DNA of 37,121 nt, from the IMG/VR virus record IMGVR_UViG_3300028627_000020, positions 1 to 37,121 of that record; one strand, written 5' to 3'. The notes under the pieces were generated by a model. That model was not told where the DNA came from. It worked only from the letters and a program-made list of their open reading frames with translations, and ran no database searches. The first letter of the stretch is position 1. Every line of letters begins with the position of its first letter. A program made the translations under genes and the position numbers. Origin of the DNA: a virus. Shown one piece after another: positions 1,810-37,121 of the stretch.

Positions 1810-3300
1810 ATGAGTGTTACTTCATTTCAGGAACAAGTTTTTTATCATTATATCTTAGGCAATCAAATTTTTCTTAATACGACAAAGCCGGAGTTCTTTA
1901 TGAATGCAAACATTAGAGAACTTTTTAAAATTGCTAAAACACATGCCTTAAGATATAAAGAAGCTCCTTCAAAGGAACAAATGATTCAATTGGTTCAGTT
2001 ACAAGGACTAAGTGAAAAATATCCTGATGACCTTATATCATCATTATACAATGCAAAACAACTTTTAACACAATACGGAGATGAATGGTTAGAAGATAAC
2101 GTAGGTCCCTGGATCCAGGTTCGTAACTTGGATAACGTTATGCGTAAAGCAATTGCGTATATGAAGACAACTGCAGTTACAGCTGATAATGCCGGTGAAG
2201 TTGTTGAGAAAATACGTCATATGCTTTCGACAGAAACTGCTATTGACTTTTCGTTTAATCTCGGAACAAGTTTCTTTGACCCAACATCTCACTTACAAAC
2301 TCGATTGGCAAGGACAACTTCGGGATATAATTACATTGATATATGTACTAAAGGCGGATATTGGAAAGGAATGCTGATGGTCCTTTTTGGGATGCCAAAA
2401 GCTGGAAAATCGATGTGGTTGTGTAACTTAGCCGCAAAATCAGTGTTAAATGGGTATAATACAGCATATATAACATTAGAACTTCAAGAAGAATTGGTTC
2501 ATATGCGTATTGGTGCAAATCTTTTAAACGTGCAATTAGATAATTATGAGAACTTTACAAAAGATCAGGCATTATTAAAACAGAAACTGGGAACACTTAA
2601 ACAACGCCATTATTTACAACCATTAGGTGAATTGCATGTTAAAGAATTCCCAACAGCATCTGCTTCAGCCAATGATATTTCAGCATACTTGAAAAAAGCC
2701 CAAGAAACTTTAGGACTTAAGTTTGATAATGTTTATATTGATTACATTAATATCATGAGAAATTGGAGAAATCCTAATTCAGAAAATACGTATCTTAAGA
2801 TAAAACAAATTTCTGAAGATATACGTGCAATGGGTCAAGAAAATGATTGGGCGATTATAACCGTGACCCAGACGAATCGGTCAGGCTGGGAAAATGACGA
2901 TTTGGGATTAGGCTCAATTGCTGAATCTGCAGGACTATTACATACAACAGATATTCTTTTTGGAATTATTACAACTGCTGAAATGAAAGCGGCCGGTGAA
3001 TATTATCTTAAATGTTTAGCAAATCGTGTCGCAGGATATGAAAATACACGAAAAAAGTTTATAATGGAATGGCCGTATGCTCGAATTGAAGAAGATAGTA
3101 ATGCACGTATTGAAGATTTGGAATTTTTTATAAATAACTTTCGCTCAGGACAAAAACAACCAAGAGGTCAAGAACAAAACAAAGAACGATCTATAGACAT
3201 TCATTCTGCTATAAATGCCAATATATCAGCACTTGAACCTCAGGCTTCAGAAAATCCCGATTTTAAAAATATAAACGTTACAGGATCTAATTTATTTTAA
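1810..3300 (+). CDS. 41: DnaB-like replicative helicase (T4 gp41-like)
   Basis: Walker A GMPKAGKS, YITLEL, VYIDYINIM (Walker B), TVTQTNRSG and IAESAG. Located downstream of uvsX as in T4. Confidence 0.9.
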   Translation: MSVTSFQEQVFYHYILGNQIFLNTTKPEFFMNANIRELFKIAKTHALRYKEAPSKEQMIQLVQLQGLSEKYPDDLISSLYNAKQLLTQYGDEWLEDNVGPWIQVRNLDNVMRKAIAYMKTTAVTADNAGEVVEKIRHMLSTETAIDFSFNLGTSFFDPTSHLQTRLARTTSGYNYIDICTKGGYWKGMLMVLFGMPKAGKSMWLCNLAAKSVLNGYNTAYITLELQEELVHMRIGANLLNVQLDNYENFTKDQALLKQKLGTLKQRHYLQPLGELHVKEFPTASASANDISAYLKKAQETLGLKFDNVYIDYINIMRNWRNPNSENTYLKIKQISEDIRAMGQENDWAIITVTQTNRSGWENDDLGLGSIAESAGLLHTTDILFGIITTAEMKAAGEYYLKCLANRVAGYENTRKKFIMEWPYARIEEDSNARIEDLEFFINNFRSGQKQPRGQEQNKERSIDIHSAINANISALEPQASENPDFKNINVTGSNLF

Positions 3301-3311
3301 ATATATAAAAC

Positions 3312-3764
3312 ATGAAAAAGGAAGGAACTAAAGCCGAAATGTCGTTTATTGAAGATGAACACGTAGGAGAAGATTTTGGCTCAACGATTAAAGTAGAAGG
3401 CAGTGTTTCTCATTTATACGAAGATCAATTAGGAGATAACATTGTTGAAAATAGGATCATAAAAATGTTAGACAATGAAATGTTTGACATTTTTAAATCG
3501 TCTATCTATTATGAAAAATATCGTAAACGTAAAAAAGCTGATAGTAATGACAGAGTAAAAATGTATTACTACTTTAAGGAAGAACTTTTAAAGAGACGGC
3601 AATTTACAAACATGGAAATTTTTATTGCCTTTGCCGAATTTTTTGATATTAATTACACACAATTGTATTCTGAGATTGGAGTTTTAGATAAAGAAGGTTT
3701 GCTTCGTGAATTAAACGATAAATACGGATTGGCAAATAAAATTAAAACAAAAAGATTATTTTAA
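3312..3764 (+). CDS. Hypothetical protein, weak resemblance to gp33 late co-activator
   Basis: 150 aa ORF in operon orientation. The helical C-terminal half (FIAFAEFFDINY...LLRELNDKYGL) is loosely gp33-like. Unverified. Confidence 0.5.
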   Translation: MKKEGTKAEMSFIEDEHVGEDFGSTIKVEGSVSHLYEDQLGDNIVENRIIKMLDNEMFDIFKSSIYYEKYRKRKKADSNDRVKMYYYFKEELLKRRQFTNMEIFIAFAEFFDINYTQLYSEIGVLDKEGLLRELNDKYGLANKIKTKRLF

Positions 3765-4892: not shown

Positions 4893-4948
4893 CAAGATCG
4901 ATAAAACTGGGGTTTAAATTAATTATATAAAATAAAAAGGATATTGTA

Positions 4949-5380
4949 ATGAAGAAAAAGAAAATAAATGAACCTGTTGGTCGTCCAGTCTTTCCTTCTG
5001 AATTTGAATCTGACCCAGATTGTTATGTAATATTTGCAACTAATGGGTTAATGTTAGGAAGAATGATTGCAGCTTCTAAAGGGCAATATTGCGTAGAACA
5101 TCAAGGAGATCTTGTTATATTTAATGCAAATGTTATAACTAAAACTCATGGGAAGGTTTGGTATGGCGACTTAAATGTAAATTTAGATTTTGATAACTTA
5201 AAAAATGTAGCAGATACTATAGGAGAGGATTTATATATTTTAATGGAAGGCGATGCTCGATTTGGTTATGAAAATGCACCTATAGATGAATTAATTGCTA
5301 AAGCTAAGGCTGTTATTCGCTGTAAGGTTAAAACAGAAGAAGACAATAAAAACTCTAAAAAGAAAACAAAAAAATCGTAA
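4949..5380 (+). CDS. Hypothetical protein
   Basis: 143 aa ORF with an A-rich start context. Confidence 0.7.
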   Translation: MKKKKINEPVGRPVFPSEFESDPDCYVIFATNGLMLGRMIAASKGQYCVEHQGDLVIFNANVITKTHGKVWYGDLNVNLDFDNLKNVADTIGEDLYILMEGDARFGYENAPIDELIAKAKAVIRCKVKTEEDNKNSKKKTKKS

Positions 5381-5384
5381 AAGT

Positions 5385-5876
5385 ATGGCACTAATAATTA
5401 CTGCTCCCGAAGAAATATATTCGGTGCAAAATAACAAAAATGTTAAAATGTTTTTGGCCGGCGGGATAACAAATTGCCCAGATTGGCAAAGTTATGTTGT
5501 CAATGAACTAAAAGACATAGAAAATCTTACGGTTTATACGCCTCGAAGAAAGAATTTTCCTATAAATGATCCTAATGCTGCTGAAGAACAAATTGCGTGG
5601 GAATTTCAGCACCTAAAAGAGGCAGATATTCTTTTCTTTTGGTTTTCTAGAGGTTCATTGAATCCCATTGTTTTATATGAATTGGGAATGTGGTGTAATT
5701 CAGGTAAAAAACTTGCTTTAATAGGAATTGATCCTGAATATGAAAGAAAACAAGACGTTATCATTCAAACAAAACTTGCAAGACCTCGTGCAGTATTTTT
5801 CGATTCATTAGAAAAAATGATCGAAGAAGTAACTTATCTTTTTACAAATATTTTTACAGAGGAGGAAGAAGAGTGA
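5385..5876 (+). CDS. Nucleoside 2-deoxyribosyltransferase-like protein
   Basis: Start re-assigned to ATG 5385 (MALIITAP). Motifs FLAGGITNCPDWQ, YTPRR, QIAWEFQHLKEADILFFWF and PIVLYELG. Confidence 0.75.
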   Translation: MALIITAPEEIYSVQNNKNVKMFLAGGITNCPDWQSYVVNELKDIENLTVYTPRRKNFPINDPNAAEEQIAWEFQHLKEADILFFWFSRGSLNPIVLYELGMWCNSGKKLALIGIDPEYERKQDVIIQTKLARPRAVFFDSLEKMIEEVTYLFTNIFTEEEEE

Positions 5877-6034
5877 GACAAAGAAAATCAATGAAAATAA
5901 CATCTAAAAAATATGTAATTTTTCACGATGAAGATTTAGCACAATTCGGAGGTCTTTATATTCCTGAAGAAATTAAAAAGAAAAAGAAAACTTCTTCAAT
6001 AAAATTGTCTAAAATTTTTCAAAAAAGAAGTTAA
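5873..6034 (+). CDS. Small basic hypothetical protein (53 aa, not in ORF track)
   Basis: GTG start overlapping the upstream TGA (GTGA), reading MRQRKSMKITSKKYVIFHDEDLAQFGGLYIPEE...; fills the gap before gp46. Confidence 0.5.
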   Translation: MRQRKSMKITSKKYVIFHDEDLAQFGGLYIPEEIKKKKKTSSIKLSKIFQKRS

Positions 6035-8100: not shown

Positions 8101-8721
8101 ATGAAAAGAATAATGATTGAAGAATCTTTATATGAATTCGCTAAACGTGGAAGACCCAGAAAAAATGCAAAGGGACCTATAAGAAAATCTTATGGTATTG
8201 ATACAACTGATGCATGGGACGATATTGAAGACGATGAAACAATTGACATGGATGATATAGATGTTGATACATCTGATATGGAAAATGCAGAGGAAATAGC
8301 AGTTGAAGATGAAGATGCATTTGATAATAATTTATTTAGAGCATTGAGTAATGAGATTAAAGCGCCTGAATTTTCAAGAAGAACTCTTGTATTTAGGCTA
8401 AAAGGAGATCTTTCAAAAATTCAAAATGGTGTTCCTATGGCAAAAATTGGAGATAATGCATTTTTATTTAAGCTTAAAGATGGCAAATTAAAAAAGATCT
8501 TTCTTAAAGACATTATTCTTGAAAACAAAAATATTTCTAATAGAGCTCGTATGGTATTTGAAGATTATGATGATACAGACGTAAAAGAATCTCGTAGGTT
8601 TGATCCTCAAACAGATGAAGAAATTCCTGAACATGACTGTTCAAGATACATAAATAGACATGGGCAATGTATGTACTGTGGAAAATGGGTTGAATCTGAG
8701 GATGAAGATTTTGAAATTTAA
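8101..8721 (+). CDS. Hypothetical acidic protein with AT-hook-like motif
   Basis: N-terminus MKRIMIEESLYE, KRGRPRK, D/E-rich stretch, C-terminal Cys/His cluster. Confidence 0.7.
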   Translation: MKRIMIEESLYEFAKRGRPRKNAKGPIRKSYGIDTTDAWDDIEDDETIDMDDIDVDTSDMENAEEIAVEDEDAFDNNLFRALSNEIKAPEFSRRTLVFRLKGDLSKIQNGVPMAKIGDNAFLFKLKDGKLKKIFLKDIILENKNISNRARMVFEDYDDTDVKESRRFDPQTDEEIPEHDCSRYINRHGQCMYCGKWVESEDEDFEI

Positions 8722-8736
8722 AATAAAAATATAAGC

Positions 8737-9006
8737 ATGAATCACTACTTAAAACATTTTATTGCTGGAGCAATTATATCTTTAATTACTCTTGTATTTT
8801 TTGTATTATTTGTTCATGTTCCTGTCTATGGATGGGATGCTGGAGTAGCTGCAATACTTACTGTTGCTGCAGGTGCAGGAAAGGAAGTTATATGGGATAA
8901 ATGGCTTAAAAGAGGAACTCCCGATTACTATGATTTTTTCTACACTATATGTGGGGGTTGGGCCACGATATTTCTTTGGAAAATTATTGAATTATTTTTC
9001 ATATGA
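8737..9006 (+). CDS. Small membrane protein
   Basis: 89 aa with three hydrophobic segments and GAGKEVIWD. Confidence 0.7.
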   Translation: MNHYLKHFIAGAIISLITLVFFVLFVHVPVYGWDAGVAAILTVAAGAGKEVIWDKWLKRGTPDYYDFFYTICGGWATIFLWKIIELFFI

Positions 9007-9212
9007 AATTAGTCAGAGAACATTTGAATGAAAAGAAACAAGAATCATATACGATGGATGATCTTTCGTATGAATTCATTACCGATATTCTTAAATTAGG
9101 AACAATGGATAATCTTTTCATTAAATTTCTCGAAAAGAAAAAAATAAATCAAAATTATTTAACGGATCTTATGAAAGCTGTAATTAAACGAATTGAAAAT
9201 AAATGGATATAA
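9003..9212 (+). CDS. Hypothetical protein (MKLVREHLNE leader)
   Basis: 69 aa; start overlaps the upstream stop region. Confidence 0.65.
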   Translation: MKLVREHLNEKKQESYTMDDLSYEFITDILKLGTMDNLFIKFLEKKKINQNYLTDLMKAVIKRIENKWI

Positions 9213-31339: not shown

Positions 31340-31360
31340 TGAATATATAAAATAAAAATG
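31340..31360 (+). promoter_or_regulatory. Putative late promoter plus start context
   Basis: TGAATATATAAAATAAAAATG, identical to 35248-35228 on the minus strand. Confidence 0.55.
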
Positions 31361-32332
31361 AAAGATTTTAGAAGAAATGCGAATAATATGATAATATGTG
31401 AAGAGTGTGGTAAAACATTTAAACTTGTGGGTTCCTTAGCAAGACACATAAAACAATTTCATATTATTACTCAAAAAGAATATTTTGATAAATGGTTAAA
31501 AGAAGAAGGAGAAGGCGAATGCAAATTATGCGGAAAGGAAACTAAATTTATGAATTTTTCACGATATTATCAAACTACATGCAGTAAATTATGTAATTAT
31601 AAATTACTTGGAATTGGTATGGCGTCTACAGAAAGAAGACAAAAAATTAAAGAAACTTGTTTAAAAAAATATGGTGTTGATTCTCCTCTTAAATCTTCTA
31701 TTATAAGAACTAAGATAGAGCAAGAAAACATTAAAAATTATGGTGTAAAAAATAATTATCAGCGAAAAGATGTAAAAGAAAAAATCAAAAAAACTAAAAA
31801 GGAAAAATACGGTGATGAAAAATATCAAAATTGGGATAAACAAAGACAAACATGCTTAGAACGTTACGGAAACGAGTGCGCATTATTAAATATAGATATT
31901 AAGAAAAAGACAGCAGAAACTCTTAAAAAAAGATATGGAGTTGAACATCAATCTCAAAATGAAAATGTACATTATAAACAAATGAATAGCGGAAAGAAAA
32001 TAAAATATTTCAGACAAACTGATTTATGGTATCAGGGTTCTTATGAATTAGATTTTTTAGAAAAATATTATGATATGTTTGAAATACACAGAGCTAATTC
32101 CATTATCTATTATTTAAATGGAAAGAAAAAATATTATCATCCAGATTTTTATATACCATCTTTAAATCTCATTATTGAATGCAAAAATTCATATTATGAA
32201 AAAAGAGATAAAGAAGTATTAGAAGCAAAAGAAAAAGCCACTATTGCTAATGGCTTTAAATATATAATGATAGTTGATAAGAATTATTCTGAATTTGACG
32301 AATTTTTAAGCCAAGGCACGTCAAATTTATGA
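31358..32332 (+). CDS. Putative free-standing endonuclease: zinc fingers, YG repeats and PD-(D/E)XK domain
   Basis: CEECG..HIKQFH, CKLC..CSKLC, five KxTxLxxYG-type repeats, and C-terminal YQGSYE..YHPDFY..IIECK. Confidence 0.75.
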   Translation: MKDFRRNANNMIICEECGKTFKLVGSLARHIKQFHIITQKEYFDKWLKEEGEGECKLCGKETKFMNFSRYYQTTCSKLCNYKLLGIGMASTERRQKIKETCLKKYGVDSPLKSSIIRTKIEQENIKNYGVKNNYQRKDVKEKIKKTKKEKYGDEKYQNWDKQRQTCLERYGNECALLNIDIKKKTAETLKKRYGVEHQSQNENVHYKQMNSGKKIKYFRQTDLWYQGSYELDFLEKYYDMFEIHRANSIIYYLNGKKKYYHPDFYIPSLNLIIECKNSYYEKRDKEVLEAKEKATIANGFKYIMIVDKNYSEFDEFLSQGTSNL

Positions 32333-33491: not shown

Positions 33492-34541
33492 TTATTTTTT
33501 AATGCCGGTGAATAATTCGGCTTTTATGCTTTTGTCTGACTTATAATTTGATAAAACAAAATCATCTATAGTAAGCTCTAATATGTCATCCAGTGACTTG
33601 AGTTCCTTTGTAATTGTTAGATAAGGTAACCTATTAGGCGTTCGTTTTAATTGCTCCTGTGCCATCGGAATATGGTCTAGATATAAATGGGTGTCTCCGC
33701 CTATCCAATATGCAATACCAGGAGCCATATTTGAAACTTTTGCTATAATTATTAACAATAATGACATTGAAGCCAAGTTAAATGGAACACCAAGAAAAAT
33801 ATCACATGAACGTTGATACATGTTTAGATCAAGGAAATATTTAGGGATATTGTAACAATCTAAATCTTCGTGCGAAAGAAAATTAGGTATATTCTCAGGT
33901 ATTAAATTTTTTCTTTCTTCAAATGACATTGGCCTCACAATAAATTGATAAAGAAGATGACATGGGGGAAGTGCCATCTCAGGAAAATCTACTTTATTCC
34001 AGCTATCTATTATATGATAACGACTATAAGGATTGTTTTTTAAGCCTTCAATGACATCTTTAATCTGATCTACTCCATTTTGATTTCGCCATTGATAGCC
34101 ATAGACTTTACCAAGATCACCAAGGTGATAATTCCCTATAACTTTAGAAATTAATCTATAATCTCTTCCTTTTTTAATAGCGTCTATGAATTCTTCTTGC
34201 GTTTCAAATCTATAAGGCAGTTCTTCTTGAAATCTTGATTCTAAATTAATAAATTCTTCATATTTTTTCAAATACCAACGATATGCATCGGATGACCAAA
34301 TATTAACACCGTTATCAACTAAATATTTTATATTTGTATCTCCTCTTAAGAACCAAAGGAGTTCATGAATTATTCCTTTCAAAAACATCTTTTTTGTTGT
34401 TAATAACGGAAATCCCTCGCCAAGATCCATTCGTATAGTTGCGTTTGAAATACCTATTGTATTCGGCATGTTGGGTCTTCCTGATTCCTTCTCTACACCC
34501 TCTGTTAAAATTTTATCTAATAGTTCGAGATATTGTTTCAT
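33492..34541 (-). CDS. thyA: Thymidylate synthase, full length
   Basis: FPLLTTKK, ELLWFLRG, YGYQWR, ALPPCH (catalytic Cys), YQRSCD, GVPFN and GDTHLY. Confidence 0.96.
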   Translation of the reverse strand: MKQYLELLDKILTEGVEKESGRPNMPNTIGISNATIRMDLGEGFPLLTTKKMFLKGIIHELLWFLRGDTNIKYLVDNGVNIWSSDAYRWYLKKYEEFINLESRFQEELPYRFETQEEFIDAIKKGRDYRLISKVIGNYHLGDLGKVYGYQWRNQNGVDQIKDVIEGLKNNPYSRYHIIDSWNKVDFPEMALPPCHLLYQFIVRPMSFEERKNLIPENIPNFLSHEDLDCYNIPKYFLDLNMYQRSCDIFLGVPFNLASMSLLLIIIAKVSNMAPGIAYWIGGDTHLYLDHIPMAQEQLKRTPNRLPYLTITKELKSLDDILELTIDDFVLSNYKSDKSIKAELFTGIKK

Positions 34542-35230
34542 TTTATTTCATTTTTATGTGTCCATTTGCATCCATCTATTATTCTATTATACTGAATTCT
34601 TTTTCTTATGGTTTCAGATTTTATTCCAGTTTTTTCAGAAGCGTCTTTTAAAGATTTGAATTCATGTAATATTTTATCGGTGTTAATATCAATAACCAAA
34701 ATAGGTTTTTTTAATTTTTCATGAGATTTAGCGTAATCTGTTTTTCTATTTTTAATAGATTCATACCACGATTCCCAATCTGTGTTATCTTTTATTTTTT
34801 GAAGTCTTACTGGATTATAATAATCTATTTTTTGACTTCTTTCTTTAAAATATTTTTTTCGTTCTTCTTCCGTTTTTCCTATTCCATTTAAGTGATCTGC
34901 GCGATTACTTTTATGGAAATTCGGATTTGAATAATTTATAAATAATGAAGTATCGCCTCCATCTCCTTCTTCGGGTCTTAAATTCGCCCATTCAGGAGAA
35001 TTTACTACATCTAATTCATTACTTATTTTTATTCCTTCATTAATTAATTCCTTAACATTAGTTGTTTTAAATACTATTTCAGTTAATATGTCTTTATGCG
35101 TTAAATTATGTTTTTTAATATGTCTTAACCAAATTTTTCCACTTCCTTTATATTTGAATGGATCTTTTGTAGTTTTTCCTAAATATTTTAGTCCATGAGG
35201 ACTTGTTTTAATATACAAATAATAAATCAT
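34538..35230 (-). CDS. GIY-YIG homing endonuclease with C-terminal NUMOD1-like HTH
   Basis: YYLYIKT...LKYLGKT, YKGSG..W..H, WANL.PE.GDGG, and FKSLKDASEKTGI. Confidence 0.88.
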   Translation of the reverse strand: MIYYLYIKTSPHGLKYLGKTTKDPFKYKGSGKIWLRHIKKHNLTHKDILTEIVFKTTNVKELINEGIKISNELDVVNSPEWANLRPEEGDGGDTSLFINYSNPNFHKSNRADHLNGIGKTEEERKKYFKERSQKIDYYNPVRLQKIKDNTDWESWYESIKNRKTDYAKSHEKLKKPILVIDINTDKILHEFKSLKDASEKTGIKSETIRKRIQYNRIIDGCKWTHKNEIK

Positions 35231-35248
35231 TTTTATTTTATATATTCA
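35228..35248 (-). promoter_or_regulatory. Putative late promoter plus start context for the GIY-YIG gene
   Basis: TGAATATATAAAATAAAAATG on the minus strand; it also contains the TAA that ends the thyA stub. Confidence 0.55.
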
Positions 35249-35454
35249 TAAAGAGATGGATATAAGTGGTACTTAATGTAAGATTTTCCCTTAAGATACA
35301 TTTTCTTAGTTGTTAATAACGGAAAACCACCGCTAAGATCCATTTTAATAAAGCCATGTGATAATCCTAACGTTTTAGGCATATTAGCACGCCCGGATTC
35401 TTTTTCAACACCGTTATTAAGGATATTTTGTAATAAATCGAGATACTGTTTCAT
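35233..35454 (-). pseudogene. thyA: Truncated thyA 5' fragment (56 homologous codons plus 17 unrelated)
   Basis: MKQYLDLLQNILNNGVEKESGRANMP...FPLLTTKKMYLKG is 40/56 identical to the N-terminus of the full thyA. Homology ends at 35287. Confidence 0.88.
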
Positions 35455-35521
35455 ATAAACATAATTTTAATTTATATGAAGAAAATGTTAAGAGTTTTAA
35501 AATTTTGTTAAAAAATCATAT

Positions 35522-37121
35522 TTATGCATTACTGATTTCTAACTTACCGCCGGTGCTATTATAGAATGTAAAATTAAATTCACCGTTAAGAAATCCTGCA
35601 GTAATTTTTTCTGCTATTTTATTTCCAATTGTTTCTGCCATTTGATTCCATTGTGCAGTTTGGTCCGCAGTTGATTGAGTAATAGTTCCACCTCTTGTTC
35701 CTGATGAAGTAGGTGCCGGGGCACTTTTTGCAGCTGTTGCAGCAGCAACTGAGAATGATTCAAACTTACTTACATCTAATTTACCCATCGATTCAACAAG
35801 CAATTGAACATTTTGGGCCATTGAACCTATAGACGCTGAAATTCTATCAATTCCATCACTGGATTTTGACATTTTATCTAACGTGTCTATAACCTTTGAG
35901 AAAGACTTAAGTTTTGTGTCTATTCTATCTGCACCAGTTAGATCAACTCCCTTCAATTGTGTTTCAAGACTAGATACGAATTTACTTATAGCTGTAACAA
36001 TTCCCTTTGTAACAACATCAATTTCTATAGGTTTACTTCCTGGAATAATTTGCCCGTTAGCATCAAGTCTCGGTATTTTTCCATCTTCGCCATAATCTGC
36101 AAGTTTTTGAATTATTTCAGAGAATGCCAGTATTCCTGCCAATAAACCACTTTTTTCTCTTCCACGAGATTTCTTTTCTCCCATAAGAGCTTTAGTAAGT
36201 TTGTCCATTTGTGTACGGGAACTACCACCAATGTTAAAGTTAGGGGCTTCATTACCCATTTCAGTAGCAAACTTTGAAAATGCAGAAACTATGTTTTTAA
36301 CAATACTTGTAATAGTTATAGGTTTATTCTTCAGTTCCTTAGGATCAATTATAGGATCACCTTTAGCGTCATATTCAATAAAGGTCATTTTTCCTGTTGC
36401 CCCTAATTCTGCAAAAGTTCGAAGTGTATCAGAAAAATCACTAATGCCTGAAAGCATACCTTTTTTGCCCATTATTGTTTTCTTGAAAGTATGCATACGT
36501 CTTCCAAGTTCACCTTCTCGTCTAAACATTGTTTCTTTACCTACTAATCCTTGAACGAATAGTGTAAATGCTTTAGTAATATTTGTAACTATTGTTGTTA
36601 TTGGAACATGTACTCCTTGACCAGTTTCTTCATTTCTTACGAATATTTCACCTTTAGCCCCAAATTTTGAGAATGTATCTATTGTTTCAGCAAATTCTGA
36701 GATACCAGAAATTAATCCTTTTTTACCTACTAAGGATCTGCTTAATATTTTAAGAGACCTTGCCTGAGTTCTTGTTAAATTTTGTGTATTGTTAATTAAT
36801 GAATTTAAGAATAATCCAAATGTATCTGCTATTGATTGGGCAATATGAGTTACATGGATTTTTTTGCTGTCATCAATTTTTGGCACTAAATTACCTTCAG
36901 CGTCTTCAATATATTCAAGTGAAGCTATTTCACCTACCTTAGAAAATGCTCTCAATCCTGACGCAAATTTTGACAATGAACCCGCAATATTACCAAAAAT
37001 TTTAAGAACTCTTTTAACCCTTCTAAATTGGACAATATCTCCTCGATCTAAATCAAGACGATTGTCTTGAACAGTTGCATTTGGATCTCCTGTTATTCCA
37101 CGAATAATACCGTTTAACACA
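35522..37121 (-). CDS. Large repeat-containing protein (partial), possibly tape-measure or tail associated
   Basis: Frame is open to the window edge. About four tandem ~90-100 aa units (GKKG(L/M)(I/L)SGIS.F...F...G..G...I..IV..I...F..F...L). Confidence 0.7.
   Translation of the reverse strand, partial: VLNGIIRGITGDPNATVQDNRLDLDRGDIVQFRRVKRVLKIFGNIAGSLSKFASGLRAFSKVGEIASLEYIEDAEGNLVPKIDDSKKIHVTHIAQSIADTFGLFLNSLINNTQNLTRTQARSLKILSRSLVGKKGLISGISEFAETIDTFSKFGAKGEIFVRNEETGQGVHVPITTIVTNITKAFTLFVQGLVGKETMFRREGELGRRMHTFKKTIMGKKGMLSGISDFSDTLRTFAELGATGKMTFIEYDAKGDPIIDPKELKNKPITITSIVKNIVSAFSKFATEMGNEAPNFNIGGSSRTQMDKLTKALMGEKKSRGREKSGLLAGILAFSEIIQKLADYGEDGKIPRLDANGQIIPGSKPIEIDVVTKGIVTAISKFVSSLETQLKGVDLTGADRIDTKLKSFSKVIDTLDKMSKSSDGIDRISASIGSMAQNVQLLVESMGKLDVSKFESFSVAAATAAKSAPAPTSSGTRGGTITQSTADQTAQWNQMAETIGNKIAEKITAGFLNGEFNFTFYNSTGGKLEISNA

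Follow-up and report, generated by a model that had tools for sequence, protein, structure and literature searches.

How can a homing endonuclease gene lie within the coding region of the thymidylate synthase gene thyA of a phage and still leave a complete copy of that gene? This question is raised by positions 33492 to 35454 of the virus sequence IMGVR_UViG_3300028627_000020 from IMG/VR, a phage fragment with a CheckV completeness of 9%, whose entire record of 37,121 nucleotides (nt) was analyzed and is referred to here as the window. Three open reading frames (ORFs) follow one another on the minus strand. The first, of 73 amino acids (aa; 35454..35233), consists of 56 thyA-like codons, here called the stub, followed by 17 unrelated codons and a TAA stop. 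The second is a 230-aa endonuclease ORF with its own start and stop codons (35230..34538), and the third is a complete thyA of 349 aa (34541..33492). The ATG of the endonuclease gene starts 2 nt past the TAA of the stub ORF, and the ATG of thyA overlaps the TGA stop of the endonuclease gene as ATGA; every feature of the layout described in a first-pass annotation of the letters is present. The block is probably an intron-less homing cassette inside thyA, which rebuilds a chimeric gene without splicing. The mobile unit would comprise a 54-nt tail with a promoter-like motif, the endonuclease gene, and replacement codons 1 to 56 of thyA, and it would sit between resident codons 56 and 57. The resident 5' end would be left behind as the stub, and the 5' end brought by the cassette would run in frame into the resident body to give a complete chimeric thyA.

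Both thyA 5' ends of the window are recognizable as such. Residues 2 to 56 of the stub match positions 1 to 54 of the Pfam family Thymidylat_synt (E value of 1.9e-9), and the full gene matches PF00303 over profile positions 1 to 264 of 266 (E value of 1e-85) and contains the ThyA motifs PPCH, YQRSCD, and GGDTHLY. Recomputation of the earlier comparison of the two N termini again gives 40/56 identical residues (118/168 nt in DNA) with many synonymous differences: 19 of the 56 codons are identical, 21 differ synonymously, and 16 carry replacements, corresponding to a nonsynonymous divergence (dN) of 0.225 and a synonymous divergence (dS) of 1.79. Beyond codon 56, the similarity is gone (15/54 nt).

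The origin of the stub is indicated by an uninterrupted relative. A search with the window ThyA led to a protein of 363 aa that begins with the same 52 residues as the stub. Its contig, L103, is identical to the window at 678/678 nt, a stretch that takes in the end of the gene upstream, the intervening spacer, and codons 1 to 52 of thyA. Beyond this point, L103 continues as an intact thyA (363 aa), and no endonuclease gene lies at its 5' end. Because the match is perfect and then continues as an intact gene, the stub is the resident phage's own 5' end, as had been predicted for a comparison with uninterrupted relatives. Stub codons 1 to 52 (35299..35454, minus strand) are thus 100% identical in DNA to the L103 gene, together with 520 nt upstream, and the following codons 53 to 56 (TAT CTT AAG GGA; 35287..35298, minus strand), with 3 differences from L103, form the left co-conversion tract, which moves along with the cassette. 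L103 serves as the empty allele for the left flank only, since its 3' half and downstream genes diverge. In the tree of 5' ends, the stub falls among endonuclease-free syntenic relatives. Unusual residues of the stub, such as K27 and G42, were considered as signs of pseudogene decay, which was rejected, as the intact L103 gene has the same residues.

The same cassette occurs in diverged phages beside stubs of their own. The upstream gene of contig L095 encodes a protein with 41% identity to that of the window, and its stub codons 1 to 48 match the window stub at only 111/144 nt. From codon 49 through the tail and into the endonuclease gene, 147/148 nt are identical, the single change in the shared stub codons being a synonymous one in codon 55. 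Contig L060 comes from the metagenome that also yielded L095, shares an overlap of 123/123 nt with it, and is identical to the window in the tail (59/59 nt), the endonuclease gene (690/690 nt), and thyA codons 1 to 85, with all 18 mismatches in thyA lying after codon 86 and the downstream genes showing 68 to 76% identity. A stub divergence of dS 1.17 between L095 and the window therefore stands alongside an endonuclease gene without a single difference. Judged from the sequences, the transfer of the cassette between the window-type phage and L095/L060 is recent and horizontal. A more distant version is found in L097, with a 52-codon stub, the same tail, an 84% identical endonuclease, and a full thyA; its upstream flank up to thyA codon 29 shows 1 mismatch in 2,352 nt to the endonuclease-free L104.

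Between lineages, the stubs diverge with a dN/dS of 0.04 to 0.16 and a dS of 0.7 to 1.2. They differ mostly synonymously and therefore diverged inside working genes and were captured separately. Their lengths differ as well: 56 codons in the window, 52 codons with a frameshift at the junction in L097, 26 codons followed by an unrelated insert of ∼270 nt in L098, and 23 codons in L005. In L005, the stub is fused in frame to the endonuclease as a 251-aa ORF (5249-6004), with a full thyA behind it in ATGA overlap. The endonuclease gene of L086 and L090 is free-standing, immediately 5' of an intact thyA; the contexts are unrelated, and there is no stub. The identity of the stub as the resident 5' end, the presence of one cassette in diverged phages with their own stubs, and the existence of endonuclease-free alleles are direct observations. 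A search of the INPHARED public phage genomes in distant mode returned only short thyA matches at 70 to 80%, none of them from a relative with this arrangement.

The history of the full gene's 5' end differs from that of the stub. In a phylogeny built on the first 168 nt, the full copy of the window forms a clade with the endonuclease-linked thyA genes of L005 and L086 (support of 96/99), the stub falls outside it, and a sister relationship of stub to full copy is rejected by the approximately unbiased (AU) test (p 0.032). The phylogenetic discordance expected of the full gene's 5' end is thereby borne out. Codons 1 to 56 (34374..34541, minus strand), the replacement 5' end, are 100% identical in DNA to L060. 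Sliding identity over codons 1 to 30 is 82 to 83% to L005 and L086 versus 66 to 74% to other relatives, an edge that is lost downstream. All six endonuclease-linked genes share the signature (D/N)KIL(T/A)EG at codons 9 to 14; its interpretation as an endonuclease target or immunity site is unsupported, as the L005 stub retains the sensitive-type sequence there.

Among the relatives, the syntenic L058 and L003 come closest to the 3' part of the window gene, and the window, L005, and L086 cluster in no bootstrap tree of this part. The switch between the two histories lies beyond codon 56. Codons 57 to 88 (34278..34373, minus strand) are of donor type, with many mismatches to L103 and 100% identity to L060 up to codon 85, and represent the right co-conversion tract. 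The remainder of the gene, codons 89 to 349 plus the stop (33492..34277, minus strand), begins with codons 89 to 142 of resident type, in which 3 codons differ from L103, and diverges from L103 from codon 143 on. The claim of a foreign 5' end consequently stands for codons 1 to 56 and needs extension, as the tract does not end at codon 56 and runs to about codon 85 to 88. In L002 and L096, codons ∼91 to 140 (window 34270-34121) are replaced by a different, longer version of a variable insert, with 99 to 100% identity to the window elsewhere; this recombination patch begins where the co-conversion tract of the cassette stops.

Three exchange tracts can be delimited among the relatives. Between the window and L103, the tract extends from codon 53 of the stub through the cassette to codon 88, in L095/L060 it covers codons 49 to 85, and in L104 window-type sequence occupies codons 29 to 133 without the endonuclease gene. 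All three straddle codon 56/57, and tracts placed in this way are the signature expected of the repair of a break at that position.

L104 carries an intact chimeric thyA (2264-3340) in which codons 1 to 29 match the stub of the L097 lineage and codons 29 to 133 are of the window type. Recombination between stub and full copy, with loss of the cassette, is one candidate origin of this gene, and conversion without the endonuclease gene is another. An endonuclease-free chimera with cassette codons 29 to 133 contradicts the earlier suggestion that the element is hard to lose. Apart from this point, the extent of the tract, and the proposed coupling of expression, the idea of a mobile unit that rebuilds a chimeric thyA without splicing is largely supported by the comparative data, including the identity of the stub with L103, the cassette in diverged phages, and the lack of an Rfam intron match.

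The endonuclease belongs to a family with 447 detectable homologues and shows matches to NUMOD1 in Pfam (E value of 1.1e-5) and to phrog_314, "homing endonuclease," in PHROGs. An AlphaFold2 model built with 44 homologues has a mean predicted local distance difference test score of 82.9 and suggests an I-TevI-like GIY-YIG fold followed by a NUMOD1/helix-turn-helix DNA-binding end. Modeled residues 2 to 86 resemble the catalytic domain of I-TevI (1ln0_A) with a Z score of 8.4 and a root mean square deviation of 2.6 Å over 80 residues, followed in the fold list by the GIY-YIG domains of UvrC, Slx1, and PD-T4-3. Modeled residues 163 to 228 resemble the DNA-binding parts of I-HmuI (Z score of 7.5) and I-TevI (Z score of 6.1). 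Sequence identity to I-TevI across the aligned fold is 16 to 18%, a profile search against PDB sequences gave no match, and an hhalign comparison to a bona fide GIY-YIG neighbor gave a probability of 69%. Membership in the GIY-YIG class is therefore a prediction from fold and architecture, with no sequence profile behind it, and the label given in the first-pass annotation agrees with the model and not with Pfam. Residues Y6, Y16, G18, N83, and E87 are invariant in the family, and R36 is nearly so. With a dN/dS of 0.14 to 0.29, the gene is under purifying selection, and it is intact in every copy seen.

These data are compatible with a multistep mechanism. The endonuclease would cut endonuclease-free thyA near codons 53 to 57, and the break would be repaired from an occupied genome, with the donor stub and the thyA body serving as left and right arm, respectively, and with copying of the cassette and short flanks. 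The first junction would have required a donor like L086 or L090, whose free-standing endonuclease gene just upstream of thyA is likely the ancestral layout. Following a break in the recipient thyA, the left join would be illegitimate because donor homology exists on the thyA side only. The expected first product would be the stub, donor upstream sequence as the tail, the endonuclease gene, and the donor 5' end. Once formed, the stub would give the left-arm homology for ordinary homing. One-sided illegitimate double-strand-break repair has been documented for T4 intron homing, according to a statement in PMC2988022 that cites Parker et al. 1999.

Several points weigh against this account. The putative cut site near codon 56/57 is deduced from tract positions alone. 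L103 is a mosaic, its 3' half and downstream genes being ∼73% identical to the window, and L095 and L060 are separate contigs that likely derive from one genome. For the 3' part of thyA, the AU test does not reject the endonuclease-linked clade (p 0.175). For the endonuclease, Pfam GIY-YIG (PF01541) gives no match at E values up to 1. Exchange during coinfection could move the block without the endonuclease. The corresponding alternative is ordinary homologous recombination of coinfecting mosaic phages, with a passive or inactive endonuclease and a stub that is the relic of an old illegitimate recombination. It agrees with the patchwork nature of thyA in this phage family, seen in the L002 patch at codons 91 to 140 and in the mosaics L103 and L104, and with the known occurrence of nuclease genes at phage exchange boundaries (PMC10448857). 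However, three independent tracts are centered on codon 56/57 beside the endonuclease gene, in a pattern that fits classical flanking-marker co-conversion, the endonuclease is maintained by purifying selection in all copies seen, and one transfer is recent enough to have left 690/690 nt unchanged next to stubs that differ by a dS of 1.17. Passive exchange is thus an unlikely explanation, although clearly the strongest of the competing ones.

The remaining alternatives concern the relation of the two thyA 5' ends to each other. As thyA and td genes are classical intron hosts, stub and downstream body could be exons spliced around an undetected group I or other intron, as in T4 td, and Rfam models can miss divergent phage introns. 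A search for Rfam introns found nothing in the region at E values up to 1 and nothing in six related loci at the gathering threshold. Furthermore, the downstream thyA is a complete gene that starts at an ATG of its own and matches Pfam in full, a splice from the stub to codon 57 would leave an intact 5' end unused, and the stubs of relatives are frameshifted (L097) or shortened to 26 (L098) or 23 (L005) codons. Splicing is accordingly highly improbable, in agreement with the first reading of the locus as unspliced. The two copies of codons 1 to 56 in direct orientation could also suggest that the thyA 5' end was duplicated in tandem within the genome and that the endonuclease gene inserted later. 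This explanation, of equally slight probability, is already contradicted, since the copies are only 70% identical in DNA with mainly synonymous differences, a sister relationship is rejected by the AU test, an intact gene of another phage matches the stub at 100% identity, and the full copy groups with endonuclease-linked genes. Some contigs break at the edges of the cassette (at codon 56 for the start of L060 and within the endonuclease gene for the ends of L094 and L095), as might be seen if the assembly had joined the thyA alleles of two strains. The complete layout is present, though, in the window, L001, L002, and L097, from different samples and assemblers. The same arrangement recurs in the independent assemblies L001, L002, and L094, as well as in L096 for the portion that it covers, which dismisses an artifact, and an assembly chimera is the least credible explanation of all.

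The promoter-like motif CATATAAATTAAAAT (35464..35478, minus strand) lies 9 nt 5' of the stub ATG, occurs once in the window, and is kept in L095, L094, and the endonuclease-free L058; it is presumably the start-proximal signal of the resident thyA. The cassette tail (35233..35286, minus strand), made up of the 17 non-thyA codons and the TAA, contains a second, related motif, TATATAAAATAA (35244-35233), which includes the stub TAA and ends 2 nt before the endonuclease ATG. With up to 1 mismatch, TATATAAAATAA has 14 matches in the window versus 4.1 expected, mostly located 2 to 25 nt before start codons, for example, at 4924, 7773, 21783, and 31344 on the plus strand in addition to the tail copy on the minus strand. 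It may act as a phage promoter or as a start-proximal signal and recalls the late promoters of T4. The tail occurs solely with this endonuclease, in the window type, L060/L095, L097, and L098 to L102, and a search for its origin found no tail sequence outside the cassette. Its predicted RNA fold is no better than that of shuffled sequences (z of 0.22), and no terminator-like site was found between the three ORFs on the coding strand.

The ATGA overlap of endonuclease gene and thyA recurs in L005, L097, and L098, and the two genes are 1 to 6 nt apart in L090 and L086. The whole block from stub to thyA would be cotranscribed, with translation coupled by the tight spacing of stops and starts. A dependence of thyA expression on the endonuclease gene, as proposed in the first-pass annotation, is plausible from the gene overlap. 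A further, tentative possibility, held with rather low confidence, is that the element exploits the stub as an expression leader and homology arm, the stub then being more than debris. Ribosomes from the resident thyA start would in this case finish 2 nt ahead of the endonuclease start codon both in the window and in L095 and would read directly into the stub-fused endonuclease in L005. Endonuclease and ThyA would form one coupled chain on the signals of the host gene, and the stub would double as the left arm for further homing.

The closest known systems are the mobile endonuclease ORFs (mORFs) of fungal mitochondria, described for atp6 of Allomyces macrogynus and for atp6, atp9, cox2, and nad3 of Glomus and, as C-terminal duplications, for cob and atp6 of Endoconidiophora (PMC3630166, PMC6279837). 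There, as in the window, the endonuclease ORF is free-standing and moves together with a foreign copy of one end of its host gene, which becomes a functional hybrid. The native end lies stranded alongside and matches close relatives, and the inserted end is phylogenetically discordant. Fungal mORFs replace the 3' (C-terminal) end, often with fusion in phase, whereas the cassette of the window replaces the 5' end together with the start codon, resides in a phage, and leaves the stranded piece upstream; the locus is their 5' mirror image. The T4-type endonucleases SegB, SegF, SegG, and MobE (PMC2988022, PMC2330249, PMC2790892) likewise are free-standing, adjoin their target gene, are polymorphic in presence among relatives, and show flanking-marker co-conversion. 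L086 and L090 have exactly this intron-less homing layout. The T4-type genes lie between genes and leave no stub, in contrast to the cassette, which interrupts a coding region and makes the gene whole again by the 5' segment that it brings.

Endonuclease genes inside essential genes of nucleotide metabolism or replication, without an intron or intein, are also known from nrdA of phage Aeh1 with mobE and its assembly tails (PMC3045599) and from T4 genes 39/60 with mobA (PMC2988022). There, as in the window, sequences made at the insertion keep the gene working, although the product is two polypeptides, as opposed to the single full-length ThyA predicted from the window genes. The split solution is seen in thyA of the relatives L060, L080, L088, and L098. 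I-TevI in the group I intron of T4 td shares the target family and the arrangement of GIY-YIG domain, linker, and DNA-binding end, unlike the window locus, which has no intron and an insertion at codon 56/57 instead of the td intron site. Full-text literature searches found no description of a 5'-end-replacing cassette in phages, an absence that is not proof.

Other states of thyA occur in these relatives. In L060 (749-2884) and L098 (2237-4348), the cassette-linked thyA is split again at codon 156 by the gene of a second, classical GIY-YIG/NUMOD3 endonuclease. The N-terminal part ends in a tail (..DDELYEDYLKSVK..) and the C-terminal part opens with a head (..GRPYTKEEFLKQLKIDKEF..), both resembling thyA segments around residues 88 to 130 and the flanks of the split in L088. 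By analogy, tail and head could be assembly peptides like those of the split NrdA of phage Aeh1 (PMC3045599). In L080 (4602-6873), an ORF of 329 aa (DUF7487, possibly a zinc-ribbon nuclease) interrupts thyA near codon 66; the C-terminal part of thyA begins with MKMKKQYL.. and carries a head peptide resembling that of L060, and no Rfam intron was found. L088 (2637-4609; also L087 and L093) carries the same endonuclease family, at 61% identity, in the Escherichia coli-like thyA of an unrelated phage, which is split at about residue 104 into ORFs of 104 and 304 aa. A 3' mirror form, with a full thyA, a NUMOD3 endonuclease gene, small ORFs, and a stranded thyA 3' fragment, is present in L066 (6001-9475; fragment of 78 aa), L103 (521-3059; fragment of 87 aa), and L070. 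In L058 (864-1917), the closest endonuclease-free syntenic relative in IMG/VR, thyA shows a frame change near residue 213, and in L078 (6001-6510), thyA is cut off after YGYQWRNQ with a zinc-finger gene directly next to it.

Besides the thyA block, the window contains a helicase gene, SbcCD-like genes, and a portal gene, and the phage carrying it is a large phage. A second endonuclease-like ORF of 324 aa (31358-32332, plus strand), with matches to phrog_15137 (endonuclease) and phrog_3339 (homing endonuclease), lies just beyond and slightly overlaps the end of a 277-aa gene adjoining that block. The ATG of this ORF is preceded, at a distance of 2 nt, by a copy of TATATAAAATAA, and L080 has a similar ORF (8192-9145) beside the same gene. 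The gene upstream of the stub (window 35522-37120; L001 3-2519) is large, repetitive, and tape-measure-like, without a family match, and its L001 version has an additional tandem copy of a segment of ∼95 aa.

The cassette would represent a third natural route for a homing endonuclease to reside inside an important phage gene, besides introns or inteins and gene splitting: it carries a spare gene end. Within one phage family, thyA is found as an empty allele, with a free upstream endonuclease gene, with stub and cassette, as an in-frame fusion, as a chimera, in split forms, and as the 3' mirror form; the entry steps of free-standing endonucleases are therefore reconstructable and testable. For an uncharacterized endonuclease family of >400 members, cleavage is predicted near thyA codons 53 to 57. 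For annotators, the cassette accounts for short thyA fragments beside endonuclease genes in phage contigs.

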